Positions 8,170 through 61,421 of a stretch of DNA of 64,000 nucleotides are shown one piece after another (the first letter of the stretch is position 1; every line of letters starts with the position of its first letter). The notes beneath the pieces are model-generated. The model was given only the letters and a program-made list of their open reading frames with translations, was not told the origin of the DNA and searched no databases. The DNA is from an uncultured bacterium (GTDB taxonomy: Bacteria > Planctomycetota > UBA1135 > GCA-002686595). The DNA lies in the NCBI GenBank assembly GCA_943787795.1, contig CALSNU010000002.1, forward strand, positions 352,001-416,000, in the 5' to 3' direction. Made by a program: the position numbers and the translations under genes.

Positions 8170-9579
8170 ATGATCTCGCGCGTTCTCTCCATCGCTGCGT
8201 TCCTGACGCTCGCCTCTCCAACCTTGGCCCAAGGCCCTGGCTCGTCGATTCCCGCGACCCCCAGCGCCGCCAACGCCGTGCCCGGCCCCTTCGGCTTCGT
8301 CCGGTGCCTGACGCCGGACCTGGACCCCAACCAGTCGATGTTCCTGCCGCCCTCGGACTGCAGCGCGAACAGCACCAACCCGACCAGCGCGTACGACCCG
8401 GCGAACCTGGACGAGCTCGTCATCCCGGTCGTCTTCCACGTCATCCGGGACAACAACGGCGGTGGCAACGTCCCCAACGCCCGCGTCATCAGCCAGGTCG
8501 AGATCTTCAACGAGGACTTTGGCGCCCTCGCCGGCACGCCCGGCGCGCCGGGCGTGGACACGAAGATCCGGTTCGAACTCGCGACCAGCGACCCCCAGGG
8601 GCAGGCCTCGACCGGGATCATCCGGTACGACAACTCGAGCTGGTTCAACGACAACGGGAACTACTGGAACAGCATCGCGTGGGACCCGAACGTCTATCTC
8701 AACATCTACACCCTCGGCGCGCCGTCCGGCAGCTCCAACGTCCTCGGGTACGTCCCCTTCTTCCCCCAGACCGGGAACGCCGGCAGCGCCGCCGACCGGG
8801 TCGTTCTCCTGAACGGCACTGTCGGTCGTAACGCGCCGCTCGCCCCCTACAACCAGGGGCGCACCGGGACCCATGAGGTCGGCCACTACCTCGGCCTCTA
8901 CCACACGTTCCAGTCCGGCTGCGGCGGCTCCAACTGCTACAACTCCGGCGACCGGATCTGCGACACGAACGCCGAGTCGAACCCCGAGTTCAACTGCGCG
9001 GCCAACTCGTCCAGCTGCGGCAGCACGGACCCGGTTCGCAACTACATGAACTACAGCACGGACACGTGCATGACGAACTTCACCGAGGAGCAGGCGCGCC
9101 GGATGCGCTGCACCCTCGAGTTCTACCGCCCGACCCTGGGGACGCCCGTGGGGCCGATCCTTGGCGCGAACTACTGCGTCGAGACGCCCAACAGCACCGG
9201 CCTGCCCGCGACCCTCGTCGGAACCGGGACCAAGCTGATCGCCAACAATGACTTTGGGATTTACGCCCAGGGCCTCCCCATCAGCTCGCCTGGCTACTTC
9301 ATCTGCAGCCCGAACCAGGCCCAGGTGCCCGGTCCGGGCGGCTCACAGGGCACTCTCTGCGTGGGCAGCTCCACCGGGCGCTACCTGAGCCAGGTGGGCA
9401 ACGCCGGCATCTTCGGGATCATTCCGCTGACCGTCGACCTCACGGCCATCCCCCAGCCGACGGGCAACGTCGCCGTCCAACCGGGCGACACCTGGAACTT
9501 CCAGTGCTGGTATCGCGACTCGATCTTCGGCTTCCCGATCTCCAACTTCACCGACGGCTACACGATCACCTTCGAGTGA
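8170..9579 (+). CDS. Secreted M43 (pappalysin/ulilysin-like) zinc metalloprotease carrying the shared C-terminal WYRD module
   Basis: Start moved to ATG 8170, which gives a signal peptide (MISRVLSIAAFLTLASPTLA/Q). Metzincin motif HEVGHYLGLYHTF, Met-turn NYMNY, IPVVFHV and YLNIY motifs, and a pro-domain Cys (VRCL). Confidence 0.9.
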   Translation: MISRVLSIAAFLTLASPTLAQGPGSSIPATPSAANAVPGPFGFVRCLTPDLDPNQSMFLPPSDCSANSTNPTSAYDPANLDELVIPVVFHVIRDNNGGGNVPNARVISQVEIFNEDFGALAGTPGAPGVDTKIRFELATSDPQGQASTGIIRYDNSSWFNDNGNYWNSIAWDPNVYLNIYTLGAPSGSSNVLGYVPFFPQTGNAGSAADRVVLLNGTVGRNAPLAPYNQGRTGTHEVGHYLGLYHTFQSGCGGSNCYNSGDRICDTNAESNPEFNCAANSSSCGSTDPVRNYMNYSTDTCMTNFTEEQARRMRCTLEFYRPTLGTPVGPILGANYCVETPNSTGLPATLVGTGTKLIANNDFGIYAQGLPISSPGYFICSPNQAQVPGPGGSQGTLCVGSSTGRYLSQVGNAGIFGIIPLTVDLTAIPQPTGNVAVQPGDTWNFQCWYRDSIFGFPISNFTDGYTITFE

Positions 9580-9606
9580 TCACGAGGCGGAGCAAGCCCC
9601 CCATCA

Positions 9607-9655
9607 GAGAGCGGCCCGACGGCCGGCGCGGTGCGCCGGCCGTCGGGCCGCTCTC
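9607..9655. terminator. Long perfect hairpin between convergent genes, probable bidirectional terminator
   Basis: GAGAGCGGCCCGACGGCCGGCGC-ggt-GCGCCGGCCGTCGGGCCGCTCTC, a 23-bp stem between the protease stop and the bioA stop. Confidence 0.7.
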
Positions 9656-9668
9656 GTCCAGGCGAAGC

Positions 9669-10934
9669 TCAGCTCGACCAGGCGTCCACCATGGCCAGCA
9701 TCGCCCTGGAGATCGTCGCGCACTCCTCCTCCGTCGTGCACGCCGGCGGCAGCGCGTAGACCACGTTGCCGAGGGGCCGGAGCAGCGCGCCGTGCTCTCG
9801 GGCCACGTTGCGGAGCCGCGGCCCTCGCTCGCTGAGGTAGCCCGAAGCCCCCCCCGTCAGGTCAAACGCCACCATGCCTCCGAGGTGACGGAGGTCGGCG
9901 ACTCGATCGTCTCCCTCGAGGGACGAGAGTCCGCCAAGGATGCACTCGCCCACGCGCTGGAGCTGACCCGGGGTGTCGCGCTCCTCGTTGACCCTCAGCG
10001 ACTCCAGCGCGACGGCACACCCGGTGGGATTCCCGGTGAAGGTGTGTCCGTGGAAGAGCGCCCGTGTCCGTACGTCGCTCAGGAAGATCTCATAGAGCGC
10101 CTCCGTGGCCATGGTCGCCGAGAGCGGATACATCCCGCCGGTCAGCCCCTTGGCCAGACACAGCAGGTCCGGGGTCACTCCACAGGCCAGGCAGGAGAAG
10201 AGCGCGCCGGTCCGCCCGAAGCCGGTCATGACCTCATCCGCGATCAGGAAGACTCCGCGCTCGTCGCAGGCCGATCGGACGGCTCGCACGACGGCGGCGT
10301 CGTGGATCCGCATGCCCGCCGCCCCCTGCAGGCGCGGCTCGAGGATCACCCCCGCCGCCCGCTCGCCCAGCTCGTCCAGGGCGCCGACGATGGCCGCCGA
10401 CTCCGCGGGGACCCGCTGCACCTCGAACAGGAACGGCGCGAAGGGCATGAAGAAGGGGTCGGGGTCGCCCACCGCCATCGCGCCGAAGGTGTCGCCGTGG
10501 TAGCCGCCTTCGAGCGCCACGAAGACCCGGCGCTGCGGCTCGTCTCGCTGGGCGTGGGCCTGGAGCGCGATCTTCAGGGCGACCTCCACCGCGGTCGAGC
10601 CGTCGTCGCTGAAGAAGGTCCTGGTCAGCCCATCCGGGGCCACGCGGGACAGCTCCTCGGCGAGCGCGACGCCCGGCTCATGGGTGGCCCCGGCGAAGAG
10701 CACGTGATCGAGGCGCTCCATCTGGGCCCGCGCCGCCTCCACCAGCCGGGACTCCCCGTGGCCGTGCAGGGTCGCCCACCAGGAGGAGATCCCGTCCACC
10801 AGCTCGGTCCCGTCATCGAGCACCAAGCGAGCGCCGCTCGCCGCGCGGACAGGGATCGGCGCCGGCTCGGTGGCGGCCTGGGTGTAGGGGTGCCAGACGT
10901 GTCGTGCGTCCCGTGAGATCAGATCATCGGCCAT
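9669..10934 (-). CDS. bioA: Adenosylmethionine-8-amino-7-oxononanoate aminotransferase
   Basis: VWHPYTQ, DGISSWW, DDGSTAVEVALK, YHGDT, IADEVMTGFGRTG, LAKGLTGG, HGHTFTGNP, LRPLGN; lies in the bio operon. Confidence 0.95.
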   Translation of the reverse strand: MADDLISRDARHVWHPYTQAATEPAPIPVRAASGARLVLDDGTELVDGISSWWATLHGHGESRLVEAARAQMERLDHVLFAGATHEPGVALAEELSRVAPDGLTRTFFSDDGSTAVEVALKIALQAHAQRDEPQRRVFVALEGGYHGDTFGAMAVGDPDPFFMPFAPFLFEVQRVPAESAAIVGALDELGERAAGVILEPRLQGAAGMRIHDAAVVRAVRSACDERGVFLIADEVMTGFGRTGALFSCLACGVTPDLLCLAKGLTGGMYPLSATMATEALYEIFLSDVRTRALFHGHTFTGNPTGCAVALESLRVNEERDTPGQLQRVGECILGGLSSLEGDDRVADLRHLGGMVAFDLTGGASGYLSERGPRLRNVAREHGALLRPLGNVVYALPPACTTEEECATISRAMLAMVDAWSS

Positions 10935-10937
10935 GGT

Positions 10938-12815
10938 TCATTCCCTCCTGATCGCGTCAGCGAGCGGGTGTTCGGCGAGCCAGGCGTCGATGGCTCCCGG
11001 GTCGAGAGGCGCCAGCGTCGGCAGCTCGAAGAGGTGGTCCACGTGGGCTGCGAGGGTCGCCGCGTTCTCCGCGTGGGGCTCGCCCACGAGGATGAGCGCC
11101 GAGGGCGTCAGCCGCCGGGCTCGCAAGGCCTCGAGGGTCAGCAGGGTGTGATTGAGGGTCCCGAGCCCGGAGCGAGCGATGAGCACCACGCGCGGCCGCT
11201 CCCGGGCGAGCCAGTCCGCCTGCGTGTAGGACGCCGTCAGCGGGACGTGCAGGCCGCCGGCGAGCTCGACGACGAGCGGGGCGGGGGCAGCCTCCCGCAC
11301 ACGATCCCCGAGCGCCACGTGGAGCACCTCGGGATCGATCACCGCACCCGCCGCCGCCGCCGCGGTGTGGGGGGAGGCGGGGAGCGGGAACTCGTAGGCC
11401 GGCGCGGCGATCACGCGCGCCGCGTCAGGCCGGGGACCGGCGAGGCGCTCGACGGTCCTCGAGTCGCTGTCTTCACCCGTCTGGACGGGCTTCCAGTAGG
11501 GAGCGTCGAGGGCCCGAGCCACCGCAGCTGCGGCCACCGTCTTGCCGATGTCCGTGTCCGTGCCAACGATGAACACCGGGGGCGGCGGAACCGTCAGGCT
11601 CGATGGCGATGACACCGTCTCCACCGCTCGCTGAGCCCCGTCGGTGTCCCCGGCGCGGACCGTTCCGTCCCCAGCGCCAAGGATCGGCGCGAGGCCATCG
11701 AGGAGCGCGTCGATGTCCTGGGACCGGTGCTGTGCATGACAGGCCACGCGCAGCTGCGCCGCTCCGGGGCGGACGGTGGGCTGCCGCACGGCGCGGACCC
11801 CGAGGCCCCCTGCGCGCAGCGCCTCGGCGGCCGCGACGGCGCGGCGCTCGTCCCCGATGAGGATGGGAACGATGGCCGCGCTGGGCTCCGGGGCGCCCGC
11901 GGCGGCCGCAATCCTCACGGCGTGGGCCCGGAGAATCTCCCGCGCTGGATCGGCGTCCGCGACCAGGCCGATGGAAGCCTCGAGGGCCCCGACCACCGCA
12001 GGTGCCACCGCGGTCGAGAACATGAACCCGCGCCCCTTGTGGATGACGGCCTCCACCAGGGCCTGAGACCCCGCGATGAACGCCCCCGCAGCCCCGAGGG
12101 CCTTCCCGCCGGTGACGATCTGCGCCACGAGCGGAGCAGATGCCGCCCCGGAGGCCGCGAAGCCTCCCCGACCGCGAGGACCCACCACGCCCACGGCGTG
12201 GGCCTCATCCACGATCAACCCGGCTCCCAGCCGGGCACAGGCCTCCGAGAGCTCCACCAGCGGCGCCCGGTCACCGCCCATGCTGAACACCGACTCGGTG
12301 ACGCAGAGGACTCGACGCGCGCCGCGGCTCTCCTCGAGCAGCGCCGCAGCGTGCTCGGCGTCCGCGTGCCGGAAGACCTTGACCGTGGCACGGGACAGGC
12401 GGAGCCCGTCGATGAGGGAGGCGTGGTTGTCCTCATCGGACACCACCACGTCCCCGGGCCCGGCGATGGCCGCCATGAGGGTCAGGTTGGCCTGGTATCC
12501 AGAGGGAAGCAGCAGCGCGGCATCGGCTCCGAGCCAGCTCGCGAGCTGATGCTCCAGGTCAGCGGTCTTCGGGGAGCCGCCACCGAGGAGGCGCGCGGCC
12601 CGGCCTCCGGCTCCGTGCTCCCTGGCCGCCTCGGACGCAGCAGCGCAGACCGCGGCGTTCCCCGCCATGCCGAGATAGTCGTTGCTCGTGAAGTCCACGG
12701 CGACCCGCCCGTCGGTCCCTCCGCCACCCACGGAACGGCCCAGCCCACGCCGCCGCCAGTCCGCGACCTCTGCCGCGAGCGCGCGGTCGACCTCGTTCAG
12801 CTCACCGAGACCCAT
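10938..12815 (-). CDS. bioF-bioD: Fused 8-amino-7-oxononanoate synthase (BioF) and dethiobiotin synthetase (BioD)
   Basis: Start moved to ATG 12815, overlapping the bioB end. N-half: [47 protein letters not shown]-half: [41 protein letters not shown]. One uninterrupted frame. Confidence 0.9.
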
Positions 12816-13836
12816 CGGCGAGAGGGCGCAGGCCAACGCGGGCCAGGAGCGCGGCGTCCGAGGTCGGCTCGGGGTTCGGCGTTGTGAGGAGCGCGTCCCC
12901 CACAAAGATGGAGTTGACGCCTCCGAGGAAGCACAGGGCCTGCGCCTCCTCGGTCATCTCCTGCCTCCCCGCGGAGAGGCGCACGGCGGCCCGCGGCATG
13001 AGGATCCTCGCGACCGCGCAGACGCGCACGATCTCGTCCCAGGGGAGCGGCTCGGATTGCTCGAGCGGGGTGCCCTGCACGGGCACCAGCGCGTTGATGG
13101 GGACGCTCTCGGGGGGCGGGTCGAGCACCGCAAGCTCGGCGAGGAATGCGGCGCGGTCCTGGCGCGACTCGCCCATGCCGAGGATCCCCCCGGAGCAGAC
13201 CTTCATGCCCGCCGACCGCACGTTCTGGAGGGTCTCGAGGCGATCGTCGTAGGTCCGGGTCCCGATGACCTTCTCGTAGTGCTCGCGGCTCGTATCGAGG
13301 TTGTGGTTGTAGTAGTCGAGCCCGGCGTCGGCCAGACGCGCGCCGTTGGCCTCGTCCACCATGCCGAGGGTCGCGCAGACCTCGAGACCGAGGTCCTTGA
13401 CCCCGCGGACCATGTCGAGCACGCGGTCGAAGTCGTTGCCGCAGCGGACCTCACGCCAAGCGGCGCCCATGCAAAAGCGATCGGCTCCGGCGTCCTTGGC
13501 CCGCTGCGCTGCGGCGACCACCTCGCCCGTCTCCATGAGCGCCTCCCGGGTCAGGCCCGTCGAGTGCCTCGCGCTCTGCGAGCAGTAGCCGCAGTCCTCG
13601 GGGCACGCGCCGGTCTTGATGGACAGCAGCTGCGCGCACTGGATGCGGGAGGGGTCGTGGTGCTCCCGGTGGACCCCTGCCGCCTCGTAGACGAGGTCGA
13701 GGAGGGGCCGGCCGAGGAGCTCGAGGGCGCGCGCCTCGAGGGCGGCGCGGGGGGCCTCCGGCGAGGCGCCGGGAGCCGGATCGGCGGCGGCGGCGAGGGG
13801 AGCGTCGTCGACCGAGGAGGGGGAAGCGCTGTCCAT
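12802..13836 (-). CDS. bioB: Biotin synthase (radical SAM)
   Basis: [61 protein letters not shown]. Confidence 0.97.
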
Positions 13837-13942
13837 GGCGGAGAGGTTAGCCCTTCAAGCGCGAACGGGGCAGCCGACCGCCGATGAACTCGCGGCCGGG
13901 GAGCGGGTCTCACCGGGACGCTCGACGGCCGCTGCGGCCGAC

Positions 13943-14509
13943 CTACCGCGCGTGGTCCCCTGGAGCCTCCAGCTCCAGGCGTTCGAACCCATTGGGGTGG
14001 AGCACGTTGAAGCCGCCGTCCCCGTTCTCGTCCGCCGTATGGAAGCCGTCGTGGGCGCGGCGAGCGAGGTAGACCCGGACCCGCTGGCCCGGCTCGGGCG
14101 TCCAGCCGCGGTGCCCGGCGGAGCTGAGCGGCGGGGTCCCGTCGCTCCACCACCATCGCTTGCGGAAGGCGCGGGTCATCCAGCGCACGTAGACCGGCCC
14201 CTCGGGCAGCACCTCCGAGGACCACCCAGACCCTTGCGGTGCCTTCTCAACGCCGTCCACCCGGAGCTCCGCCACGTGCTCCCCCACGTCCCATCGGCCG
14301 TCCCGCTCCTCGGACAGATAGACCCGCTGGACCGTCCCGGTGACCACGTGGGTGGCCCCCGAGCGCAGCATCTCGGGCGGCCTCATGGGGATCTCCGGTG
14401 CCGCCAAGGAGGCGGCCACCGGAACCGCGGCGCAGGCCAGGAGCAGGGCGGCCAGGACCAGCCGCATCCGCCCCCTGGCCCGCGCCGGGAGATCCCCCAG
14501 GGGGATCAT
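13943..14509 (-). CDS. Hypothetical secreted protein
   Basis: ATG 14509 overlaps the upstream stop (TGATG); an alternative start is at 14467. Signal peptide RMRLVLAALLLACAAVPVAASLA. The segment ATHVVTGTVQRVY...GQRVRVYL is reminiscent of an OB/TIMP-like fold. Confidence 0.6.
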   Translation of the reverse strand: MIPLGDLPARARGRMRLVLAALLLACAAVPVAASLAAPEIPMRPPEMLRSGATHVVTGTVQRVYLSEERDGRWDVGEHVAELRVDGVEKAPQGSGWSSEVLPEGPVYVRWMTRAFRKRWWWSDGTPPLSSAGHRGWTPEPGQRVRVYLARRAHDGFHTADENGDGGFNVLHPNGFERLELEAPGDHAR

Positions 14510-15570
14510 CAGTGCCACCAACCCCAGTCGTTGGAGGCGGATTCGATGCGCGCGCGCATGGCGAGCGCCTCCTTGTCCTTGGGGAAGTCCGCGAGGACGG
14601 TGTTCACCGAGGCGTTCGCGTCGTTGAACTGGCCCGTGGTCAGGCTCAGGCTCGCCAGGGAGAGCAGGCAGTCGTGCCACCCGGTGGTGGCCTCCTTGCT
14701 CAGGCTGAGCAGCTCCTTGCCCAGGGCCTCGTCCTTCCGGCCGGCATCAGCCATCTTGGCGACGCTCTTGCGCGCCCGGTCGAAGTAGGCGACAGCGTTC
14801 TTGAGGTCCCGGCGCGACTTCGCCTGGTTCTTGGACTCGAGCAGGCCCTTGCGGCGGTAGCCCTCGCCGTCCTTCACGGCCTTGCGGATGGGCTCCACCT
14901 TGCGCTCCATGTCCGCCGCCAACCTGGCGTCCTTGCGGGCCTCCTTCTTCGCCTCACCGGCGGCCTTGCGCGCGGCGATCCCCTGGTCCAGGGAGTCCAT
15001 GAGCTGCTTGCGCTGGGCGTCCGTCATGTCGCTCCCGCGCTTGGTGAGCAGGCGCCGGACACCGGTCCGCGCGTCCCCGACCTTGCCCGCCTCGCAGAGC
15101 GAGACGATGATCTTGTTGGTCAGGTCAAGGGAAGCGGACTTGAGCTCGGGGGACAGGGGCGTCCCGGCGACCTTGGCCGAGTGGGCCATGAAGCGGAGCT
15201 CCTTGCGAGCGGCGTCCACGAGCCCCTTGTCGAAGGCGAAGACGGACAGGTCGAGCATGCCCTGGTAGTCGTCGGCGGCGAGCCCGGTGCGGCGGAGCTC
15301 CACCTGGGACTTGTCGTCGAAGGCAGAGAGGTCGTACCAGGCCTCGCCGGAGCCGCCGGACACCATGACCTTGAGCCGGACGCGGTCGCCGTCGAGGGCG
15401 ACGACCGAGGCGCGGACCGCCTTGCCGCCCTTCATGACGTAGCGGCGAACCTCCGCACTGTGGTCCTCCTGGGTGGCCGAGGTGGGAGCGTGGACCACCG
15501 GAAGGTTGGTGGCAGAGACGAGACCGAGGGTCGCTGAGGCGAGGAGGATGGTGAGCTTCATGGGCCACAT
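14509..15570 (-). CDS. Hypothetical secreted Lys/Ala-rich helical protein, possibly TPR-like at the C-terminus
   Basis: Signal peptide MKLTILLASATLGLVSA, strong GC3 codon pattern, amphipathic helices, ends in DWGWWH. Confidence 0.75.
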   Translation of the reverse strand: MWPMKLTILLASATLGLVSATNLPVVHAPTSATQEDHSAEVRRYVMKGGKAVRASVVALDGDRVRLKVMVSGGSGEAWYDLSAFDDKSQVELRRTGLAADDYQGMLDLSVFAFDKGLVDAARKELRFMAHSAKVAGTPLSPELKSASLDLTNKIIVSLCEAGKVGDARTGVRRLLTKRGSDMTDAQRKQLMDSLDQGIAARKAAGEAKKEARKDARLAADMERKVEPIRKAVKDGEGYRRKGLLESKNQAKSRRDLKNAVAYFDRARKSVAKMADAGRKDEALGKELLSLSKEATTGWHDCLLSLASLSLTTGQFNDANASVNTVLADFPKDKEALAMRARIESASNDWGWWH

Positions 15571-15678
15571 GATGCCGTCTCCGCCAGGGACGGGGTGGGG
15601 GTGATCGAGGTCATCCTTGCGTTACCCCGCGGAACCCTCCGCTAAACTCCGAGGGGTGCCACCAAGGCTCCTTTCTTC

Positions 15679-17172: not shown

Positions 17173-17297
17173 TCCGGCCCTGGACCGAGTGGCCCCCCCC
17201 GCCCACGGTTAGGCTTGACCTCTGAGTCCCCCCCAATTCTGCGCGTGGCGGCCCGCTCCCCCGGGTCCGAGCGACGAGGCGACCTCCACCCCGCCCG

Positions 17298-18899: not shown

Positions 18900-19004
18900 G
18901 CCCTCCCGTCCCGCCAGCGGGGCCCTCATCGGCGCGCGGTCGCCGGCTCTCGCGCGAGAGCCCATCACGACGCGGAGCCCCCTCCACTCACACAGCCGCT
19001 GACC

Positions 19005-19913: not shown

Positions 19914-19915
19914 GT

Positions 19916-19954
19916 CGAGCGCCCCCCTCCGCGTGCATCGGAGGGGGGCGCTCG
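19916..19954. terminator. Hairpin immediately after the EamA stop codon
   Basis: CGAGCGCCCCCCTCCG-cgtgcat-CGGAGGGGGGCGCTCG, a 16-bp stem between convergent genes. Confidence 0.65.
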
Positions 19955-20049
19955 GGGTGGGGCTTCGCGTCTGAGAACCGCGTCGCCCCGAGGAGAGAGA
20001 GAGGAGGGATCCTGCTCGCGCGGGCCGCCTTGGGCAGCCCACGTTGGGC

Positions 20050-20289: not shown

Positions 20290-20330
20290 GGTGGTGCTCG
20301 TTGTTCGGTGCGGCGGACGAGGGAACAGGG

Positions 20331-20346
20331 AGCACAGCGGTTGCCA
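20331..20346 (-). promoter_or_regulatory. Candidate sigma54 (-24/-12) promoter for the Zn-ribbon gene
   Basis: The minus strand reads TGGCAACCGCTGTGCT: exact GG-N10-GC spacing, close to TGGCAC-N5-TTGCW, about 40 nt upstream of the ATG. Confidence 0.6.
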
Positions 20347-20443
20347 GGTGGCCGATGGCTCCCCCAAGGAAGCCGCAAATGAAATCAGCGCAACGGCTTA
20401 CGTCTCCCGCGCCGCCCCGGACGCCCCTGACCCCCGCACGGAC

Positions 20444-20633: not shown

Positions 20634-20679
20634 CCGGAAGCCGGCCCCGGAAGCCAAACCCGGGAGGGGCGGCGCCGCT

Positions 20680-27230: not shown

Positions 27231-28343
27231 ATGCAGCGTCTGTCCCAACTCGGCCGATCGGCCACACTCGTCGCGACCCTCGGCCTCGCCGCCGTGGCCG
27301 CCGTGCAGCTCGAGACCACCGCGGGGGCCGCCCTCGGCGGCAGCGGCGCACCCCGGAGGATCTTCGTCGATGCGGGTCATGGCGGGACCGACCCCGGGGC
27401 GATCGGCAATGGCATCGTCGAGAAGGAGCTCAACCTCGAGGTCGCCCTGCGCCTCCGGGACCTGCTCGAGGCCGACACCGAGGACACGTCAGGTGGCGGC
27501 GAATGGGAGGTCATGATGACGCGCACCACCGACGCGTCGGTGCCGCTCTCGAGTCGGACCAACGCCGCGAACAACTGGCCCGCTGACCGCTTCGTCTCGA
27601 TCCATCACAACGCGTTCGGCAGCTCGATCGCGAGCGGAACGGAGACGTTCTCCTTCGCCAACGGGACGGCCGGAGCGGACCTGCGGGATCGGCTCCAGGA
27701 GGAGCTCCTCAGCGCCATGGGGCTTGTGGACCGGGGCCCCAAGACCGCCAACTTCTTCGTGCTCAGGGAGACCCTGATGCCCGCCGCGCTCACGGAGGCG
27801 GGCTTCCTCAGCAACCCCGGCGATGCCGCGGCCCTGTCCGCACCAGGGGCAGTGGAGGCCCTCGCCCTGGCCCACCTGTTCGGCATCCAGCGCCACTACG
27901 GCATCCCGCCCCACATCCCAGTGGACGGCCCCTCCACCTACTGCTTCCCCAAGACCGCCTCGGCAGGCTGCGTCCCGTCGATCGAGGCAGCGGGCACACC
28001 CTCCGTCAGCCAGAGCGACTTCGTGGTCGCCTGCGATCAGGTCCTCAGCCAGCAGTTCGGGATGCTCTTTTGGGGGCGTCAGGGGCTGGAGTTGCCGCTG
28101 CTCGGCGGATTCCTCTGTGTGGGCGGGCCCCTGATGCGCACGCCCGTCCAGTTCTCCAATGGCCTCGGCCCCGGCAATTGCTCCGGGCGCCTCGAGCTCC
28201 AGATGGACAGCGGCTTCCTCAGCGCCAACGGGATGCTCCCGGGGGACGAGATCTTCTGCCAGTGGTGGTACCGAGACCCCGGGCTCCTGCCCGCGACGCC
28301 GGTCGGGCTCTCCGACGGCCTCCGGTTCACCGTGCTCCCCTAG
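27231..28343 (+). CDS. N-acetylmuramoyl-L-alanine amidase (Amidase_3) with a divergent copy of the C-terminal WYRD module
   Basis: Start moved to ATG 27231 (signal peptide). IFVDAGHGGTDPGA, EKELNL, FVSIHHNA, FFVLR, ALTEAGFLSN; C-terminus TYC...LCVGG...CQWWYRDPG...LSDG. Confidence 0.88.
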   Translation: MQRLSQLGRSATLVATLGLAAVAAVQLETTAGAALGGSGAPRRIFVDAGHGGTDPGAIGNGIVEKELNLEVALRLRDLLEADTEDTSGGGEWEVMMTRTTDASVPLSSRTNAANNWPADRFVSIHHNAFGSSIASGTETFSFANGTAGADLRDRLQEELLSAMGLVDRGPKTANFFVLRETLMPAALTEAGFLSNPGDAAALSAPGAVEALALAHLFGIQRHYGIPPHIPVDGPSTYCFPKTASAGCVPSIEAAGTPSVSQSDFVVACDQVLSQQFGMLFWGRQGLELPLLGGFLCVGGPLMRTPVQFSNGLGPGNCSGRLELQMDSGFLSANGMLPGDEIFCQWWYRDPGLLPATPVGLSDGLRFTVLP

Positions 28344-39681: not shown

Positions 39682-39684
39682 GCG

Positions 39685-49475: not shown

Positions 49476-49752
49476 GGGGGGTCTGGGGCGCAGGCGGTCA
49501 GGGGATGGGGCCGTGATTCTGCAGGCCCCGTCCGCCCCGGTCGCGTGCCCCCGGGTCCCTTGAGCGAAGATTGATCGACGTCTAACCGCCCCCACACGGC
49601 GCAGGCTGCGGCGCGGCCCCTCGGGCTCCGCCCCACGACGAATCGAGAACCTCCCATGGGTGATAGATCGGTCTCGCGGGATCTGGTCTACTTGGGAAGT
49701 TTGGCCGACTCGGCTGAACACCGCGCCCCCCACCTCAGCCCCCAATCGCGCG

Positions 49753-52700: not shown

Positions 52701-53005
52701 CCGCGGGGCTCCCGGTCGAGCGCATCAACAAGGTGCATGAGGGGCGACCGCACATCGTGGACGCCATCAAGAACGGGACCATCGACATGGTCTTCAACAC
52801 ACCGTCGGGCATCGGCTCGCGGCACGACGACACCTATATCCGCTCCAGCTCCATCACCCAGGGCATCCCCTGCGTGACGACTATCTCGGGGATCCAGGCC
52901 GTCGTCAGCGCCCTGAACGCCCTCCACCAGGGGCCGATCAGCGTGCGCCCAATCCAGGAGGGCCGCCCCGCCGCGGCTCCCACCAACGTCCCGGCCGCGA
53001 AGTAA
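49753..53005 (+). CDS. carB: Carbamoyl-phosphate synthase large subunit; four apparent +1 frameshifts (about 50677, 51234, 51457, 51654)
   Basis: MPRRDDL...[74 protein letters not shown] and the MGS domain are spread over five successive frames. Confidence 0.93.
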
Positions 53006-53031
53006 TCAGCGCAGGCCGCCTAAGACGAAGA

Positions 53032-53068
53032 GCGCGCGCGGGGTCGGTCCAACCGGCCCCGCGCGCGC
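53032..53068. terminator. Hairpin between convergent carB and protease genes
   Basis: GCGCGCGCGGGGTCGGT-cca-ACCGGCCCCGCGCGCGC, a 17-bp stem with one G-U pair. Confidence 0.65.
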
Positions 53069-53086
53069 GTTCACATCACCCTTCGA

Positions 53087-54850
53087 TCACTGAACGAGGA
53101 CGTCGTCCACGTAGCCCCGCTCGTTCTTGCGGTTGGCGTTGGTGTCGAACGTGATCTCCACCGCGCCGCTCACTCCGGTGAGCGTGACGGACTCGCTCCC
53201 CCAGCTTGTGCTGCTGTAGCTCACGACCTGTGGTCCGCCGGCGCCTCCGGTGATGGTGGCCTGAAGCCGCTCACCGCTGTCGTACCCGCTGGTGCGCCAC
53301 GCCCAGCTGACGGTGACCTCCGTCGCCCCGGTGCTCACCGAGGTGGCGATCGCCGTGGACTTGCGAAGTTCGGCCGCATAGGTCCCAGTGAGCGAGTTCG
53401 TGCCGACCCGCGCGTCGTTGTTCTGACGAGACCAGTTGGCGAACGTCCCGGACTCGAAGCCGTCGGCGAAGATCACGCCGCCTCCTCCACCGCCGCCGCC
53501 GCCGCCGGCAGCGGTCGTGAAGCTCCAGCTGGAGCCTCCGGTGACGCCGTTGGCGTTCTCGGAATCCACGCGCCAGTAGTACGTGGTGCCGTCCGCCAGC
53601 GTCCCGGGGTCATAGGACGTCCCGGACTGGTTGGAGGAAACGAGGGGCGGGTTCGTGGACGATCCGAAGTACACGTCGTACTGGGTCGCGCCGTTCGCGC
53701 TCGCCCAGGAGAGCGTGGTCGAGGCGGCCACGTCCGTGGCGCCGCTCGACGGCGTGCCGCCAGCTACCTGGTCCGGCGCTGTACCGCCGCCGCCTCCGCC
53801 GCCACCGTTCTCCCAGGTGGTGAGGTTCACTCGCCAGTTCTCCAGCGTGCAGCGCATGCGCAGCGACTGGTCCAGGGAGAAGTGATCCATGCACGCGTCC
53901 TCGGAGTAGTCCATGAAGTTGCGAACCGGGTCCGGGCTCCCGCAGGTGGCACGCTCCGTCGAGGAGCAGGCCGAGTAGTTGGGCGAGCTCTCGGGGTTGG
54001 TATCGCAGCAGAGGTCTCCGCTGGCGTAGCAGTTGCTCGTGCCGCACCCACCCTGGAACGTGTGCTGGAGGCCCAGGTAGTGACCCACCTCGTGAGTCCC
54101 TGTGCGCCCCAAGTCATAGGGGGAGTAGTTGGTGTAACCAACGGCGCGCCACAGGAGCCGGACTCCGTCGAAGTCGGAACCCACAACGCCCCCGCCGTTA
54201 GGGAGGTAGGCGTAGCCCAGGTTCCCGCCGGCCGTGTTGGTGTAGATGTTGAGGTAGCGCGTTGTGTCCCACCCGATCGTGGACGCGTAGCTCCCGCGGT
54301 CGTTGTACCAGCTCTTGCTCCGGTGCCTGGTGATCCCCGTGGTCGCGTTGCCACTGGGGTCGATCGTGGCGAGGTGGAACTGGATCTTGGAGTTGGTCAG
54401 GGCGGCGAAGTCCGCGTTCAGGATCGCCACCTGCTCGAAGATGCGCGCGTCCGGGATGTTCCCGGTGCCGTTGTTCGAATAGAGCACGTGGAACACGACC
54501 GGGATGTCATAGACGACAGCCGCCGAGCCCGACGGGTCGTACCCCGGATTGGGCACCGTCACCGAGTTCGTGCAGTCACTCTGGGAGCCGATGAAGGCCA
54601 CCGACGGCGGCATGTTCAGCGCGTCGATACCGCAGCGCTTGCCGTTCCTCATGAAGAACGGAGACGCGAGGTACTCGTCCCAGTCGGCGAAGAGGTAGGT
54701 GCCCTGGATGTCATGGGCGAGGATGGAACCGTCCTCGAGCTCCGTGACAGAGTTGCGCTGGGTCGGTGAGCTTTGGTTCTGCTGTGCAGAAACAGGAACG
54801 GCGAGCAGGAGAACTGCCGCCGCCCCCATTGCGAGCGTGTGTTGGATCAT
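53087..54850 (-). CDS. Secreted M43 zinc metalloprotease with an FN3-like domain and a C-terminal beta-sandwich domain
   Basis: Start moved to ATG 54850 (signal peptide ending VSA/Q). KRCG pro-domain Cys, IPVVFHV, HEVGHYLGLQHTF, NFMDY; poly-Gly linkers; LSW...YDVYFG...TYYWRVD...WSFTT; IFADGFESG...YVDDV. Confidence 0.9.
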   Translation of the reverse strand: MIQHTLAMGAAAVLLLAVPVSAQQNQSSPTQRNSVTELEDGSILAHDIQGTYLFADWDEYLASPFFMRNGKRCGIDALNMPPSVAFIGSQSDCTNSVTVPNPGYDPSGSAAVVYDIPVVFHVLYSNNGTGNIPDARIFEQVAILNADFAALTNSKIQFHLATIDPSGNATTGITRHRSKSWYNDRGSYASTIGWDTTRYLNIYTNTAGGNLGYAYLPNGGGVVGSDFDGVRLLWRAVGYTNYSPYDLGRTGTHEVGHYLGLQHTFQGGCGTSNCYASGDLCCDTNPESSPNYSACSSTERATCGSPDPVRNFMDYSEDACMDHFSLDQSLRMRCTLENWRVNLTTWENGGGGGGGGTAPDQVAGGTPSSGATDVAASTTLSWASANGATQYDVYFGSSTNPPLVSSNQSGTSYDPGTLADGTTYYWRVDSENANGVTGGSSWSFTTAAGGGGGGGGGGVIFADGFESGTFANWSRQNNDARVGTNSLTGTYAAELRKSTAIATSVSTGATEVTVSWAWRTSGYDSGERLQATITGGAGGPQVVSYSSTSWGSESVTLTGVSGAVEITFDTNANRKNERGYVDDVLVQ

Positions 54851-55062
54851 GGCTTCTGGACGTAAGGAGTCTCGGCAGGCAGTCCGAAGAGCCGGGTGCC
54901 TCAAACACGAGGCTATACGCGACCCTCGATTCCAAGAAGGTCCGGTCTCAATGAATGAGAGAAGCGCCGGGCTCGCCGCCACCTTGTGCCCCAGAGGAGC
55001 CCTATGGCGAGCCCGGGGTGTCCGACCCTGGGGCACGGGAGCCCCTGCGTACACTCAGGCCC

Positions 55063-55845
55063 ATGAAGACCTTCCGCAAGGCCCTCGTGACGGGCGCCTC
55101 CTCGGGGCTGGGTCGCGCGATCTGCAAGGAACTCGCAGCTCGTGGGACCGAGGTCGTCGCCTGCGCGAGGCGGGCTGACCTACTGGGAGATCTGGTTCGA
55201 GAGCTCGAGGCCGCGGGCGCCACGGCCTCTGCGGTCCCCCTCGATGTGACGAGTCCTGACGCCGTGCGCGAGGCGGTGGCCTCGGCGGCCGCGGACGGTC
55301 CGCTGGACCTCGTCCTGGCCGGCGCTGGGGTGGCCGAGCACTCCGTGGAGGCCCCTGATCGCGCGACGAGGACGCTGCGACTGCTGGACGTCAACCTCGG
55401 TGGAGCGGTCACCACGGTCGAGGCCGGGATCGACGCCATGGCCCAGAGCGGCGGCACGGTCGGGGTCCTCTCCAGCCTCGCCGGGACTCGAGGCCTCCCG
55501 GGCGCGGCCGCCTACTGTGCGAGCAAGGCTGCGATCTCGACCTACCTGGAGGCTCGCCAGATCGAGCTGGCAGGACGGCCCGTCCGGCTCGTCGATGTCC
55601 AGCCCGGGTTCGTCAAGACCCCGATGACCGCGCCCAACCGATTCCCGATGCCCTTCCTGATGGACGTCGAGGACGCCGCCCGGCGCACGGTCGAAGGCCT
55701 GGCAGCGGGCCGCTCCGTCGTCACCTACCCCAGGCGGCTCGGCTGGCCGCTCCGGGTCGTGGCGCGGGTCGCGCCGCGGGGGCTGTGGCGGAGGCTGCTC
55801 GCCCAAGAAGCCCAGCGCGGCAACGGCGGTCCAGCCGAGGGCTAG
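55063..55845 (+). CDS. Short-chain dehydrogenase/reductase
   Basis: Start moved to ATG 55063; TGASSGLG, SSLAG, YCASK, PGFVKTPMT. Confidence 0.92.
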   Translation: MKTFRKALVTGASSGLGRAICKELAARGTEVVACARRADLLGDLVRELEAAGATASAVPLDVTSPDAVREAVASAAADGPLDLVLAGAGVAEHSVEAPDRATRTLRLLDVNLGGAVTTVEAGIDAMAQSGGTVGVLSSLAGTRGLPGAAAYCASKAAISTYLEARQIELAGRPVRLVDVQPGFVKTPMTAPNRFPMPFLMDVEDAARRTVEGLAAGRSVVTYPRRLGWPLRVVARVAPRGLWRRLLAQEAQRGNGGPAEG

Positions 55846-56678
55846 CCCTCCAGGAGCCTGTCGAGGGCGTCGATTGTCTTCTCCGGCCGGAAGAGGAGCC
55901 ACTCGTGGCTGTTCTCCTCCTCCAGCACCTCGAGCTCGACCCGGTCGAAGGCCTGGAGCAGCCCGCCCTCGATGCCCGCGTGCGCAGGATAGAACTCGTC
56001 CCCGCACCCATAGAGCACCCGGACGAGCGGGGAGGTCCCCGCTCCGTCCCTGACCCAGCGGGCGAGGCGCTCGTACCGGAAGGCTCGCAGCCCACCGATC
56101 AGCTCGAAGGCCGGTCGCGGCCTGCTCAGCCAGTTCCGATAGAAGCGGCCGGCCCCCTCGGAGAGCACGGCCCGGGCCGTGGCGCCGTCTCCCGCCAAGC
56201 CGAGGAACATCTTCGTGTTCATCCACGCCGAGCGGAGCATGAAGGTGACCGGGGCGCTCGAGGACGGCTGGACGGGGTTGATCGCCAGCACCGCCGAGGG
56301 CCCCGGCTCCAGCCTTGCGAGGGTATAGCTGACCGCGGCCCCCGTGGAGTGGCCGAAGACCGGCGCGCCCGGGGTCAGAAGCCCGTCGCCGATCAGCCGC
56401 TCCACCGTCCGCGCCGCGAGGGCTGCGCAGGACCAGAAGTGGCGCGGCGGGGTCTGCAGGCCGTTGTTGCCGAACAGGAAGGGCGCGACGACCCGCCAGC
56501 CCCGGCTCCCGGCCTCCTCGAGCACCAGCCGGTAATCCAGCGGGTGGCGGGCATAACCGTGCAGGAACAGAACGTCGCGCGGCGCCGCAGCACCCTCGCC
56601 CTGCGCGGGCTCCACGACCGTCACCGGCACGGACTCACCGCGAACGCGCAGCGTGATGTGGGTCGTGGATGTCATCAC
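55842..56678 (-). CDS. Alpha/beta hydrolase
   Basis: LFLHGY, GHSTGA nucleophile elbow, YGCGDEF, SHEW. Confidence 0.82.
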   Translation of the reverse strand: MMTSTTHITLRVRGESVPVTVVEPAQGEGAAAPRDVLFLHGYARHPLDYRLVLEEAGSRGWRVVAPFLFGNNGLQTPPRHFWSCAALAARTVERLIGDGLLTPGAPVFGHSTGAAVSYTLARLEPGPSAVLAINPVQPSSSAPVTFMLRSAWMNTKMFLGLAGDGATARAVLSEGAGRFYRNWLSRPRPAFELIGGLRAFRYERLARWVRDGAGTSPLVRVLYGCGDEFYPAHAGIEGGLLQAFDRVELEVLEEENSHEWLLFRPEKTIDALDRLLEG

Positions 56679-56827
56679 AGAGGAAGACGATAGCGGACCG
56701 GCGCTCAGTCCCTTGCAACCAGACGCCGTGGCGGGTCTCCTTCTTGGGTCCGAATGGCCGCCGCGACCTGCTCGTCCCGGCTCGAGGCCCTCCTTTGAGA
56801 CCCTGACTCGGCATCCAACCGACTCGT

Positions 56828-58438
56828 ATGAACCTCGGAATCCCCAAGGAATCCCACCCCGGCGAACGCCGCGTGGCCGCCTCTCCGGCCGCCGCGAAGC
56901 GCTTCGTAGAGCTCGGCTTCGACGTCACCGTCGAGGCCGGCGCCGGCGATGGCGCGTCCTACCCTGACTCGGCCTACGAGTCCATCGGCGCCAAGATCGG
57001 CAGCGCGGAAGACGCGTTCGGCGCGGACGTCATCCTGAAGGTCCGCGCACCGCAGGACGCAGACGGCGCTCGCGAGCTCGACCTCATCCGTGAGGGCGCG
57101 ACTCTGGTGAGCTACGTCTTCCCCGCCCAGAACGAGGACCTCGTTGCGGACCTCAAGGCGCGCAAGATCACGACCCTGGCCATGGACTGCGTGCCCCGCA
57201 TCACGCGCGCCCAGAAGGTCGATTCGCTCAGCTCGATGGCCAACATCGCTGGCTATCGCGCGGTGATCGAGGCGGCCAACGAGTTTGGCAGCTTCTTCAC
57301 CGGGCAATTCACCGCCGCGGGCAAGGTCCCGCCGGCCAAGGTGCTGGTCATCGGCGCGGGCGTCGCCGGGCTCTCCGCGATCGGCGCGGCCCGCGGCCTC
57401 GGCGCCATCGTCCGCGCGTTCGATACGCGCGAGTCGGTTCGCGACCAGATCAAGAGCCTCGGCGGCGAGTTCCTCACCGTCGAGATCGAGGAGAGCGGCG
57501 AGGGCGGCGGCGGCTACGCGAAGACGATGAGCAAGGAGTTCATCGACGCCGAGATGGCCCTCTTCCGTGAGCAGGCCAAGGAGGTCGACATCGTCATCAC
57601 GACGGCGCTGATCCCCGGCAAGCCCGCCCCCAAGCTCTGGCTCAAGGACATGGTCGAGGCCATGAAGCCCGGCTCGGTGGTCGTCGACCTTGCCGCGGAG
57701 CAGGGTGGCAACTGTGAGGTGACCGAGCCCGGCGCCCGCGCCGTCCACTCGGGCGTGAAAATCCTCGGCTACACCGACATGCCGAGTCGCATGGCGAACG
57801 TGGCCAGCGACCTGTACGGCACGAACCTGGGGCACCTGCTCGACGAGCTCGGCGGCGCGGGCTCGTTCTCGGTGGACCTCGAGAACGACATCATCCGCGG
57901 CGCCATCGTCACCCACGATGGCGAGATCCTCTGGCCGCCCCCGGCGGCCCCCGAGCCCTCACCCGCCGCCAAGCCGGCGCCCAAGCCCGCCGTAGAGCCG
58001 GCACCCAAGCCCGCGGCGGCGGCGGCTCCGAAGGCCGATGCCCCGGCGGCGACCTCGGAGGGCAGCGGCTTCTCACGCAAGGCGCTCATCGGCGTGGCCC
58101 TCACGGCCCTTTGGCTCTGGCTCCGCTTCGGGAGCGGGGCCAGCGACGCCGTCGGCGAGACCGAGAGCGAGTTCCTGCAGCACGTGACGGTCTTCATCCT
58201 GGCCTGCTTCGTCGGCTGGCAGGTCATCTGGAGCGTCACCGCGGCGCTCCACACCCCGCTCATGAGCGTCACGAACGCCATCAGCGGCATCATCGTCGTG
58301 GGCGGCCTCGTGCTCGCCACCGACGAGGTCCCCCAGACCGCCGCGATCATCGGTGCCGTCGCCATCCTCTTCGCCACGATCAACATCGTCGGCGGCTTCA
58401 TGGTCACGCGGCGCATGCTGCGGATGTTCAACAAGTAG
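56828..58438 (+). CDS. pntA: NAD(P) transhydrogenase subunit alpha
   Basis: GIPKE...[37 protein letters not shown], and the membrane part [15 protein letters not shown]. Confidence 0.96.
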
Positions 58439-58450
58439 CGCGCCAGCACC

Positions 58451-59854
58451 ATGGAAACGGCACTCATCACCCTCGCCTACCTCACGTCGGCGGTCCTGTT
58501 CATCCTCAGCCTGCGCGGCCTCTCCAGCCAGGAGACCGCGCGCTCGGGGAACACCTACGGCATGCTCGGCATGGCCATCGCGATCTTCGCGACGGTCACC
58601 GCCGACGGCATCAACCGCTACGCGTTCATCGCGGTCGCCCTCGTCGTCGGCGCCTTCATTGGGCGCAACATGGCCGCCAAGGTCGCCATGACGGCGATGC
58701 CCGAGCTGGTCGCGCTGCTCCACAGCTTCGTGGGTCTTGCGGCGGTCCTGGTTGGCTACGCGACCTACCTGGCGCAGCCCAAGTCCGGCGCGGTCTTCGA
58801 GACGGAGATCTTCGTCGACGTCTTCATCGGCGGGATCACGTTCACCGGGTCGGTCATCGCCTATCTCAAGCTCAAGGGCAGCCTCAGCGGCAAGCCCCTG
58901 CTGCTCCCCGGCAGGCACATGCTGAACCTGGCCGCCGCCGTCGCGGCGGTGGGCATGGGCTACTGGTTCACCACCTTCGACGGCGCCGAGGGGCTCCTCC
59001 CCCTCGCCGTCATGACGGTGATCTCCTTCGCCCTCGGCGCGCACCTCGTCGCCGCCATCGGCGGCGCCGACATGCCCGTCGTCGTCTCGATGCTCAACAG
59101 CTACTCCGGCTGGACCGCCTCCGCGGCGGGCTTCATGCTCGGCTACGACATTCTCATCATCACCGGCGCCCTCGTTGGCAGCAGCGGCGCGATCCTGAGC
59201 ATCATCATGTGCAGGGCCATGAACCGCTCGATCGTGAACGTGATCTTCGGCGGGTTCGGCACCGGCGGCGGCGCTCCGGCGCCCGCGGCTGGAACCGCTG
59301 CTGCCGTGACCGGCGACATCCAGGAGACCGACGTGGCCGAGATTGTCGAGCGGCTCGCGAGCGCCAAGAGCGTCATCGTCGTGCCCGGCTACGGCATGGC
59401 GGTCGCCCGCGCCCAGCACAAGGTGCAGGAGATGACCGAGCTGCTGCGCGACCAGGGGGTCAACATCCGCTTCGGCATCCACCCCGTGGCAGGCCGCCTG
59501 CCCGGGCATATGAACGTGCTCCTGGCCGAGGCCAACGTGCCCTACGACATCGTCCTCGAGATGGACGAGCTCAACGACGACTTCGCGTCCACCGACGTCG
59601 TGCTCGTCATCGGCGCCAACGACATCGTCAACCCCAGCGCCATGACGGACGAGTCGAGCCCGATCTACGGCATGCCGGTCCTCGAGGTCTGGAACTCCGA
59701 CTTCGTCGTGATGATGAAGCGCAGCCGAGGCACGGGCTACGCCGGGGTCGACAACCCCCTCTTCGTGGAGCCCTGTACCCGGATGCTCTTCGGGGACGCG
59801 GGTGACTCCATGGACGGCATCGTGGGAGCCCTCCGCGAGCGCGCCGGCTCCTGA
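58451..59854 (+). CDS. pntB: NAD(P) transhydrogenase subunit beta
   Basis: [69 protein letters not shown]. Confidence 0.97.
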
Positions 59855-60140
59855 CCTGGCCCTGGCCCGAGCGGACGGCCGCGCTTCCCTGGAGGGAGGC
59901 GCGGCCGTCCCCGTTTGAGACGAGCACCTGCGAGCCGGGCGCTGCGCGGAGCGCTCAGCTCGCGAATTGAGCGGCGCGGGCCCCCCTGGGCACCTCCCTA
60001 CGCAGCTCAAACCCGCACGCCGCGCTCCGGCCCCTCACCGACGAATCGGGTTGCGCTACTTTCGGGCGCCGGTCCAACCGCTCGCGCCTCCCACGCGCCG
60101 CCGCAGTGGCCCGCCTCCCCCGAAGGACCCCCCCATAGAA

Positions 60141-61421
60141 ATGATGCTCCAGCACCTTCCCTACGCCCCCGCCCTCGCCGCCGCGCTCCTCGCCACCTCG
60201 GCCGCTGGCCAGTCTGTCTTCATCAACGACGACTTCGAGACCGACACGTCCGCCGACTACATCATCACGAACGACGGGACGCCCGACGGAACGCAGACGT
60301 TCGCCTACGACTACATCGCGGCGGGCATCCCGCTCGCCCCCAACTCCTCCCCCGGGGAGACCGGCGGCCTGAGGCTCACCGCCAACGACACCGCCGGGGC
60401 CAGCGACGCCTGGACCCTGTTCCACACGAACCCGATCGCCGCCGACTTCTATGTCCTGACGGTCGACGTCTGGATGAACTTCACCTCGGGTTCAGGGACC
60501 ACTGAATACGCGGAGGTCGGCGTCGGCGGCGACGGGGCGACCTACAACTCGGTCTTCCTCCCCATCGAGGGCTCAGGTGCATTCCTCGCCTTCACCGGCG
60601 ACGGAGGGTCCATCTCTGACTTCCGCTGGTTCCGCGCCGTGCCCAACACCCCCATGGGCGACTCGAACAACACGACGCTGCCCAACAACCACCCGAGCTA
60701 CCTCGGCCACGGCAGCGACGGGTCCGGGTCTTTCTTCCAGGGCCTGTTCCCATCTCCTCCCGCCACCACGGCGGGCTCGCCCGGGAACATCTGGACCACC
60801 GTCCGGGTGGAGGTGGACAACGTGGTCGGGCAGATCTCGTTCTACTTCGATGACCAGCTCACGTTCCAAGGGGACTTCGCGAACGACTTCAACGGCTTCG
60901 CCAGCCTGAGCGTCGCCGATGTCTTCTCCTCGGTGTCGACGGCGAACAACTTCACGCTGTACGACAACTTCCGCGTGGAGGTGCCCACCAACACCATCGG
61001 GGCGAATTACTGCACCGCCGCCGCCAACTCCACCGGCGCCGTCGGCGTGGTCTCCGCCGTCGGAAGCGAGTTTGTGTCGGACAACCTCGTGACCCTCTCG
61101 GCGAGCGACCTCCCCGCGAACTCGTTCGGCTTCTTCCTGACCGGCCAGAACCAGGGCTTCACCGGAAACCCCGGCGGCAGCCAGGGCAACCTGTGCCTCT
61201 CTGGCTCCATCGGTCGCTATGTGGCGGCTGGCCAGATCAAGAACTCAGGGGGCGCGGGGACCTTCGACCTCACCCTCGACCTCAACCTGACTCCAACGCC
61301 GATCGGTCTGGTCAGCATCGCCGCCGGCGAGACCTGGAACTTCCAGGCCTGGTATCGAGACGCCGTCGGTGGCGCGGCCACGTCCAACTTCTCCGACGGG
61401 CTCTCGATCGGCTTCCTCTGA
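60141..61421 (+). CDS. Secreted beta-rich protein of unknown function carrying the shared C-terminal WYRD module
   Basis: Start moved to ATG 60141; signal peptide ending TSAAG/Q. N-domain (DDFE...FAYDY...GIPLAPNS...YDNFRV) looks lectin/LamG-like; C-terminus GANYC...WNFQAWYRD...SNFSDGLSIGFL. Confidence 0.8.
   Translation: MMLQHLPYAPALAAALLATSAAGQSVFINDDFETDTSADYIITNDGTPDGTQTFAYDYIAAGIPLAPNSSPGETGGLRLTANDTAGASDAWTLFHTNPIAADFYVLTVDVWMNFTSGSGTTEYAEVGVGGDGATYNSVFLPIEGSGAFLAFTGDGGSISDFRWFRAVPNTPMGDSNNTTLPNNHPSYLGHGSDGSGSFFQGLFPSPPATTAGSPGNIWTTVRVEVDNVVGQISFYFDDQLTFQGDFANDFNGFASLSVADVFSSVSTANNFTLYDNFRVEVPTNTIGANYCTAAANSTGAVGVVSAVGSEFVSDNLVTLSASDLPANSFGFFLTGQNQGFTGNPGGSQGNLCLSGSIGRYVAAGQIKNSGGAGTFDLTLDLNLTPTPIGLVSIAAGETWNFQAWYRDAVGGAATSNFSDGLSIGFL

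Follow-up and report, generated by a model that had tools for sequence, protein, structure and literature searches.

The type IX secretion system (T9SS) of Bacteroidota is associated with type A C-terminal domains (CTDs; Por_Secre_tail, TIGR04183/PF18962), immunoglobulin (Ig)-like beta-sandwiches that form the extreme C-terminus of unrelated Sec-exported proteases, glycosidases and adhesins, tens to hundreds of them in each genome; the CTD is cleaved and the cargo attached to anionic LPS. PEP-CTERM (TIGR02595, PF07589) is a lineage-wide tag on many exported proteins that combines a ~25-residue motif with a transmembrane (TM) helix and an arginine cluster, and the MYXO-CTERM/myxosortase tag (TIGR03901, TIGR03382) combines a short cysteine motif with a TM helix and an Arg cluster. 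The GC-type dockerin (NF041540) is a C-terminal anchoring domain ending in GCP, and PPC (PF04151) is a C-terminal beta-sandwich found on secreted peptidases. To our knowledge, the placement of Planctomycetota proteins on or beyond the outer membrane is largely unknown. Here we describe a C-terminal domain of ~138 residues, hereafter the module, that is shared by three proteins with unrelated passengers (the parts preceding the module) encoded in a 64,000-nucleotide stretch of contig CALSNU010000002.1 (the window) from an uncultured planctomycete, and that probably serves Saltatorellus-family planctomycetes as a common tag by which Sec-exported proteins are sorted or anchored to the surface.

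The module resembles T9SS CTDs in layout and cargo but is a member of no catalogued family. The two share an Ig-like beta-sandwich, the extreme C-terminal position and a large set of unrelated Sec-exported carriers. They are joined at an identical junction to homologous M43 proteases, module passengers include the T9SS-associated galactose-binding domain PF23759, and the fold matches tied for best with the module include the part of the T9SS sortase PorU that bears its CTD. In contrast, none of 97 aligned module copies matches the T9SS CTD models (type A, or type B TIGR04131) at E<=1, and four T9SS tails compared with the 97-copy module profile give an hhalign probability of 0.2%. The module comprises ~138 amino acids (aa), 11 strands and a conserved disulfide, whereas the TIGR04183 model has 72 positions, and the module host belongs to Planctomycetota, with PorU, PorV and SprA not found within the limits of the searches given below.

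PEP-CTERM occurs at the equal position on homologues of the third window protein, but the module is a folded 138-aa domain without a TM helix; moreover, no PEP-CTERM-like end (PEP motif, TM helix, basic end) was found by our regular expression among the 43,969 six-frame open reading frames (ORFs) of this genome, and the exosortase EpsH/PF09721 has no match in it. MYXO-CTERM is an alternative tail on homologous Amidase_3 proteins, but comes from another phylum and differs in the short motif and helix described above. GC-type dockerins are found on M43 homologues, several of them from sources named as Planctomycetota, and a module subclass has a similar end (FCP). However, the dockerin model has ~67 positions, its hhalign probability with the module is 0.2%, no module copy matches it, and NF041540 has no matches in five family genomes, this one included. 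PPC is present on one M43 homologue, whereas none of the 97 copies matches PPC and the module is not confined to peptidases. No paper describing the module was found in a search of the literature on Saltatorellus and on planctomycete C-terminal sorting or secretion, and the preprint 10.1101/817700, by term search of its main text, contains no mention of "C-terminal", "secret", "proteom", "signal peptide" or "S-layer".

All three window proteins end in one homologous ~138-aa domain. The ORFs and modules that an earlier note, made from the DNA letters alone, had placed on these proteins are confirmed (Table 1), as is its division into two close copies and a divergent one: BLASTP gives 44% identity between copies 1 and 3 (E 3e-41), and copy 2 is 25-27% identical to the other two (E 2e-5 and 3e-8). 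The motifs singled out there (YC, NSTG, PGGSQGxLC, GRY, WNFQxWYRD and SNF[TS]DG) coincide with conserved columns of the 97-copy alignment. A non-circular hidden Markov model (HMM) of the module core, built from 20 other genomic copies and copy 3 without copies 1 and 2 and searched against the 43,969 ORFs, recognised copy 1 with E 5e-49 and copy 2 with E 1.8e-5 (25 bits), the latter over positions 3-135 of 139. An AlphaFold model of the full-length amidase (63-sequence alignment, mean predicted local distance difference test (pLDDT) 89) has a pLDDT of 82-95 in the copy-2 region, and the order and spacing of the strands there equal those of the core module. Copy 2, which groups with one other copy (L080) in a deep clade of the module tree and is 36-41% identical to modules of distant genera in the same family, is a genuine member.

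Table 1. Positions of the module-bearing genes, their module copies and the neighbouring repeat-protein gene in the window
Feature	Position	Strand	Description
M43 zinc metalloprotease gene	8170-9579	+	469 aa from ATG at 8170 (longest ORF start 8029); signal-peptide-like N-terminus, catalytic passenger, module
Module copy 1	9163-9576	+	138 aa, reaches last residue; stop codon directly after
N-acetylmuramoyl-L-alanine amidase gene	27237-28343	+	368 aa from ATG at 27237; N-terminal hydrophobic helix, Amidase_3 domain, divergent module
Module copy 2	27930-28340	+	137 aa, divergent subclass with extra cysteines; stop codon next
Unknown-function exported protein gene	60189-61421	+	410 aa from ATG at 60189 (longest ORF start 59967); signal-peptide-like N-terminus, 270-aa passenger, module
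Module copy 3	60999-61418	+	140 aa, core type; stop codon next
Repeat protein gene	2778-7757	+	1659-aa exported protein, directly upstream of the M43 gene

The passengers of the three proteins have little in common beyond export. The first matches PF05572 (1.6e-19) and has orthologues of 469-472 aa (for instance P0156, 96% identity); the second matches Amidase_3 (PF01520, 1.1e-45), with orthologues of ~370 aa that are 92% identical; the third belongs to no family in the Pfam or NCBIfam searches and has 247 homologues at E<=1e-5. The signal peptides claimed for all three were recovered as N-terminal hydrophobic, signal-peptide-like stretches ending in an A-x-A/Q-like site, as judged by our own heuristic rather than by SignalP; in the M43 protein this segment is MISRVLSIAAFLTLASPTLAQ.

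The source genome (4.71 Mb in 8 contigs, 69.6% GC, 85% complete) contains many more copies, as had been predicted. The HMM search identified 100 module ORFs among the six-frame ORFs, each with a single copy, and the core-only HMM recovered the identical 100. Module genes account for 99 of 3,352 crude gene calls (~3%). The expectation of an extreme C-terminal placement also holds, since the module ends no more than 4 residues from the stop in 98 of the 100 ORFs; the two exceptions are a fragment and L032 (C6:243723-244898, minus strand), where the module directly follows the signal peptide and precedes a 111-aa CxxCH-containing tail with no Pfam match.

Passenger diversity, too, agrees with the earlier description, and the set is one typical of secreted proteins. 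Pfam matches in the 100 ORFs include peptidases (M43, two M12, two S8, trypsin-like, two M14 and S9), other enzymes (Amidase_3, GH16, Endonuclease_1, two glucose/sorbosone dehydrogenases and a SASA esterase), and lectin- or adhesin-like domains (C-type, legume and LamG lectins, lamin-tail, NIDO, collagen and many FG-GAP), while about ten passengers carry PF23759 and more than half have no Pfam family. Signal-peptide-like starts were assigned to 83 of 100 ORFs by a lenient heuristic, some of them implausibly deep in the ORF, and to 55 of 99 by a strict one. In part the module tree tracks passenger families, with FG-GAP and PF23759 clades, a pattern indicative of duplication of whole genes; it also intermixes unrelated passengers, and the window copies fall into three different clades. 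M43 orthologues share 57-77% identity in the passenger and 35-64% in the module, which is conserved yet freer to change than the catalytic domain. Three ORFs, L026 (C1:317489-318097), L045 (C1:288825-289328) and L062 (C6:155450-155902), contain almost nothing but the module, preceded by 16-63 residues, and may be either stand-alone modules or gene remnants.

The 97-copy alignment has near-invariant columns at C5, N10, G13, G22, P39, G63, C66, R73, G87, G110, F115, Q116, R120, D121 and N130. Of the copies, 88 have both Cys5 and Cys66, and the long penultimate strand is conserved on both faces. The motif N10-S-[ST] is kept in 77 of the 97 copies and N130-x-[ST] in 88, with serine or threonine at position 132 in 96. 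N-glycosylation of these two motifs was considered; no STT3-type oligosaccharyltransferase was found in the genome, although the positive control matched in archaea, and the motifs may be either structural or modification sites. In a module subclass (L081-L086, L090 and others), the end in FCP is accompanied by an extra cysteine immediately before the domain start, an arrangement that suggests a second disulfide linking both ends of the domain.

AlphaFold2, applied to copy 3 with the 97-copy alignment, gives a confident model (pLDDT 97.8, predicted TM-score 0.91) of 11 strands and no helix, in line with the claimed lack of a TM helix. The claim that the module belongs to no characterised family holds as well: the three window copies and the 97 aligned copies have no recurring family in Pfam or NCBIfam at E<=1, and 15 Pfam families are each matched by one copy alone (E 0.004-0.43), none of them recurrently. 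The 97 copies were not recognised by known carbohydrate- or cell-wall-binding models of Pfam-A (carbohydrate-binding modules (CBMs), SLH, PPC), and a sequence profile search of the PDB gave nothing below E 0.3. The structural check that the earlier note had proposed was run and returned an Ig-like sandwich without a specific counterpart: Foldseek found no match in the PDB at E<=1e-3, and a wider structural comparison by VIA retrieved generic Ig-like or fibronectin type III-like sandwiches with Z 7-8 over ~90 of 140 residues. The PorU region (6za2_B; Z 8.0, root-mean-square deviation 2.7, 99 residues) is tied with unrelated Ig domains. On the predicted model, the module and T9SS CTDs would share a fold class, which says little about function.

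Evidence on the role of the module comes from its replacement by other C-terminal elements, which was counted among the 120 homologues listed for each passenger. Each of the three window passengers occurs elsewhere with an established sorting or anchoring tag at the position of the module. Among the M43 homologues, the module is present on 47 of 120 and PF18962 on 3, 14 end in CP as GC-type dockerins do, 31 share an unnamed tail of ~115 aa, and single members have PPC or PKD. The M43 homologues of this comparison are 55-60% identical. One of them, P0190, scores 39 bits on TIGR04183; of three CP tails tested by NCBIfam, P0209 scores 50 bits on NF041540, P0210 reaches 26 bits, below the cut-off, and P0274 has no match; and in P0255 the region of the module is occupied by PF04151. 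For the third passenger, the module is found on 81 of 120 homologues and PEP-CTERM on 36, the latter from Pirellulimonas nuda, Lacipirellulaceae and Bythopirellula among others (52-62% identity). In these proteins the PEP-CTERM tag directly follows the shared strand FTLYDNLxVxV, and TIGR02595 was above the cut-off in three of four homologues tested. Amidase homologues have the module in 67 of 120 cases, and 29 of 120 end in a cysteine, a hydrophobic helix and an Arg cluster; TIGR03901 (MYXO-CTERM) was above the cut-off in four of five tested.

The unnamed M43 tail (the last ~115 aa of proteins in the range P0192-P0273) ends in TQALLLG..LTNAxDLVxGN. Two members tested had no NCBIfam match, and with an hhalign probability of 0.14% as a distant relative of the module it was treated as unrelated; it may represent a further uncatalogued tag family. 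A look-alike tail with QALV..LSNGAAF is present on five amidase homologues (P0463, P0467, P0471, P0473 and P0485).

The phylogenetic distribution of the module is centred on one family. The close copies among the best 80 of 597 confirmed loci come from Planctomycetota metagenome-assembled genomes (MAGs) and Saltatorellus ferox Poly30 (NZ_CP036434.1). In the same family, 23 of 24 other genomes have from 71 to at least 100 module matches each, with up to 732 first-pass candidates in one of them, and one genus (G024) has no match. In other families of the order, a single weak match was found in 2 of 16 genomes and none in the rest. A phylum-wide sample of 301 genomes at least 85% complete, with 13 candidates scored per genome, contains 18 genomes with a match: the module is present in 7 of the 8 family genomes, the genus G225 being without it, and ten genomes elsewhere have 1-5 matches. 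An M43 query found no orthologue in five module-negative relatives, and the corresponding amidase query matched via the module only. A profile search of 1.84 billion cluster representatives identified 19,681 proteins with E<=1e-3, of which 3,772 reach E<=1e-30. In 149 of the best 150 representatives the module lies 0-1 residue from the C-terminus, and none of them has two copies.

The exosortase PF09721 has an almost inverse distribution. It is above the cut-off in 11 of the 16 genomes from other families of the order and in 1 of the 24 other family genomes (G012 only). Across the order, exosortase and module are near-complementary, which is consistent with, and not proof of, a sorting role.

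The existence of a shared module is real and far beyond chance. The tag swaps together with the exosortase distribution strengthen its reading as a sorting or anchoring element, which we still infer rather than observe. The proposal of such a role in the earlier note thus stands in part: tag swaps and the near-complementary exosortase speak for it, and no export or attachment machinery was identified. On balance, the module is probably a C-terminal tag of an uncatalogued kind, folded and oxidised in the periplasm, by which exported proteins are directed to the cell surface or held there. According to this model, the precursor would cross the inner membrane via its signal peptide, folding of the module and oxidation of its conserved Cys5-Cys66 pair would follow in the periplasm, and the folded module would then be recognised by a putative envelope component. 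This component might either export the cargo across the outer membrane, in the manner of T9SS and its CTD proteins, or retain it on the cell surface.

Several observations weigh against this reading. The fold similarity is no proof of function, because its Z values are tied with many unrelated Ig domains, and no conserved linker or cleavage motif was found upstream of the module. The N-terminal module of L032, and of P0137 from another genome, in which the module follows the signal peptide and is itself followed by a different tail, means that a free C-terminus is not strictly needed. Peptidoglycan amidases usually act in the periplasm, an awkward location for the cargo of an outer-membrane export tag. 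Signal peptides were scored solely by our own heuristics and not by a dedicated predictor. Finally, the complementarity with exosortase is based on one clade split and therefore represents a single evolutionary event.

Searches for the machinery that would read the module also count against this interpretation. The T9SS components PorU, PorV and SprA (NF033707, NF033710, TIGR04189) have no match in this 85%-complete genome, in searches for which control genomes were below the cut-off for PorU and PorV and none matched SprA at all. FadL-like barrel families have no match in this genome either. Module genes are dispersed over all contigs, and the 501 genes located within 3 genes of a module gene include no recurrent family specific to them, the recurrent ones being large general families only (sulfatase-like, PSCyt/PSD, ABC ATPases and ECF sigma factors). 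Ten outer-membrane-like and large exported proteins were then compared with module presence in four module-positive (G012, G021, G194, G268) and four module-negative (G024, G225, G040, G033) genomes, and none of these envelope candidates follows the presence and absence of the module.

The ten were rejected on the following distributions. The 1186-aa lipoprotein L195 is present in 40 of 41 relatives, negatives included; the second Omp85 (L181) is in 0 of 5 genomes, and L215 in none of the tested ones. The DUF3187 protein L184 was found in G024, G021 and G040, the alginate-export-like L191 in G040 only, and L209 in G012 and G040 only. The TPR secretin L198 is strong in G024, G225, G194 and G040; L214 is also in G225 and G033 and is absent from G194; and L216 (PDZ and Sortilin-like) is in G012, G225 and G033 only. 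The nearest of the ten, L212, is in all four positives, yet also in the module-free G225. This protein (C2:595368-601094, 1909 aa, no Pfam family), detected in five of six family genomes and neither of two from another family, is a family-specific large protein without known family. The 1280-aa L216 (C4:422692-426531) combines Sortilin/BNR-like repeats with a PDZ domain, and the FlgD_ig-like domain at its C-terminus reaches a marginal score on the T9SS model Por_Secre_tail (21.4 bits, 23.3 with neighbours), the sole such match in six family genomes.

A more specific proposal is that the module marks the cargo of an undescribed outer-membrane secretion or surface-attachment system in the Saltatorellus family, which would replace the exosortase/PEP-CTERM system of sister families and the T9SS of Bacteroidota and be read by one or more proteins without known family. 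We consider this possible but tentative, and clearly less probable than a tag function as such.

An alternative function, which we regard as unlikely, is that of a ligand- or carbohydrate-binding domain (CBM-like or adhesive) that brings enzymes and lectins to one target outside the cell (marine particles, prey surfaces or exopolymer made by the cell itself, for example) and is not a signal for a secretion or anchoring machine. This function is attractive in view of a beta-sandwich with conserved W113, F115, Q116, W118, R73, R120, D121 and N130, the hydrolases or lectins among many passengers, the absence of any machinery found and the N-terminal module of rare proteins. However, the 97 copies show no recurrent match to a CBM or any other binding family at E<=1, and the module is always present as a single copy, never in tandem, and nearly always forms the last residues of the protein, whereas CBMs typically vary more in position. 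Furthermore, its place on homologous passengers is taken by sorting or anchoring tags (T9SS CTD, PEP-CTERM, MYXO-CTERM, GC-type dockerin) and not by CBMs, and it is also found on non-enzymes and on a peptidoglycan amidase.

Less probable again is a docking or self-assembly unit, by which module proteins would plug into a repeated scaffold protein in cohesin-dockerin style or bind one another, and so coat the fragile outer membrane of these shape-shifting bacteria with protein. The abundance of module genes would suit such a coat, GC-type dockerins take the equivalent position on M43 homologues, the conservation of both faces of the penultimate strand could mean a protein-protein interface, and the Saltatorellota preprint describes outer membranes as fragile (10.1101/817700). 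Nevertheless, no scaffold with repeated receptor domains was identified and module genes have no recurrent neighbour family; the adjacent 1659-aa protein, composed of ordinary repeats (nine SdrD_B-like and three DUF7467), lacks the module, and nothing ties it to the module.

The weakest alternative, a folding or stability aid like the PPC or P-domains of secreted proteases, which would assist passenger folding or keep the passenger inactive before its own removal and would carry no address information, could account for a C-terminal beta-sandwich on many proteases and for PPC in the same region of P0255, but is very improbable in view of the ~100 structurally unrelated passengers, many of them non-enzymes (lectins, FG-GAP), which make a passenger-specific chaperone role unlikely, of the module-only ORFs, and of the module identity retained over M43 orthologues, which points to selection on the module itself.

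As a probable sorting or anchoring tag, the module provides a concrete handle on protein placement at the planctomycete surface: it is carried by ~3% of the genes in this genome and by 19,681 protein clusters, at the position otherwise occupied by T9SS, PEP-CTERM, MYXO-CTERM and dockerin tags. Localisation, cleavage and pull-down work is feasible in Saltatorellus ferox Poly30, a cultured and fully sequenced member of the family. The module merits a Pfam or NCBIfam model of its own; with it, annotation of marine metagenomes would mark out thousands of proteins as probably secreted or located at the surface.

Public sequencing runs in which the gene is present come from 12 studies and represent marine, seawater or plankton metagenomes. 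Contigs of a MAG named "Paracoccaceae bacterium" (L115, L123, L137, L172) contain module genes 61-64% identical to the query, and the same MAG encodes an M43 orthologue (P0163) 71% identical to that of the window; the bin label looks wrong, because the sequences look planctomycetal. In the window itself, two RNA-Seq runs belonging to a single study provide short metatranscriptome contigs that lie on positions 60320-61500, a weak hint that the third gene is transcribed.

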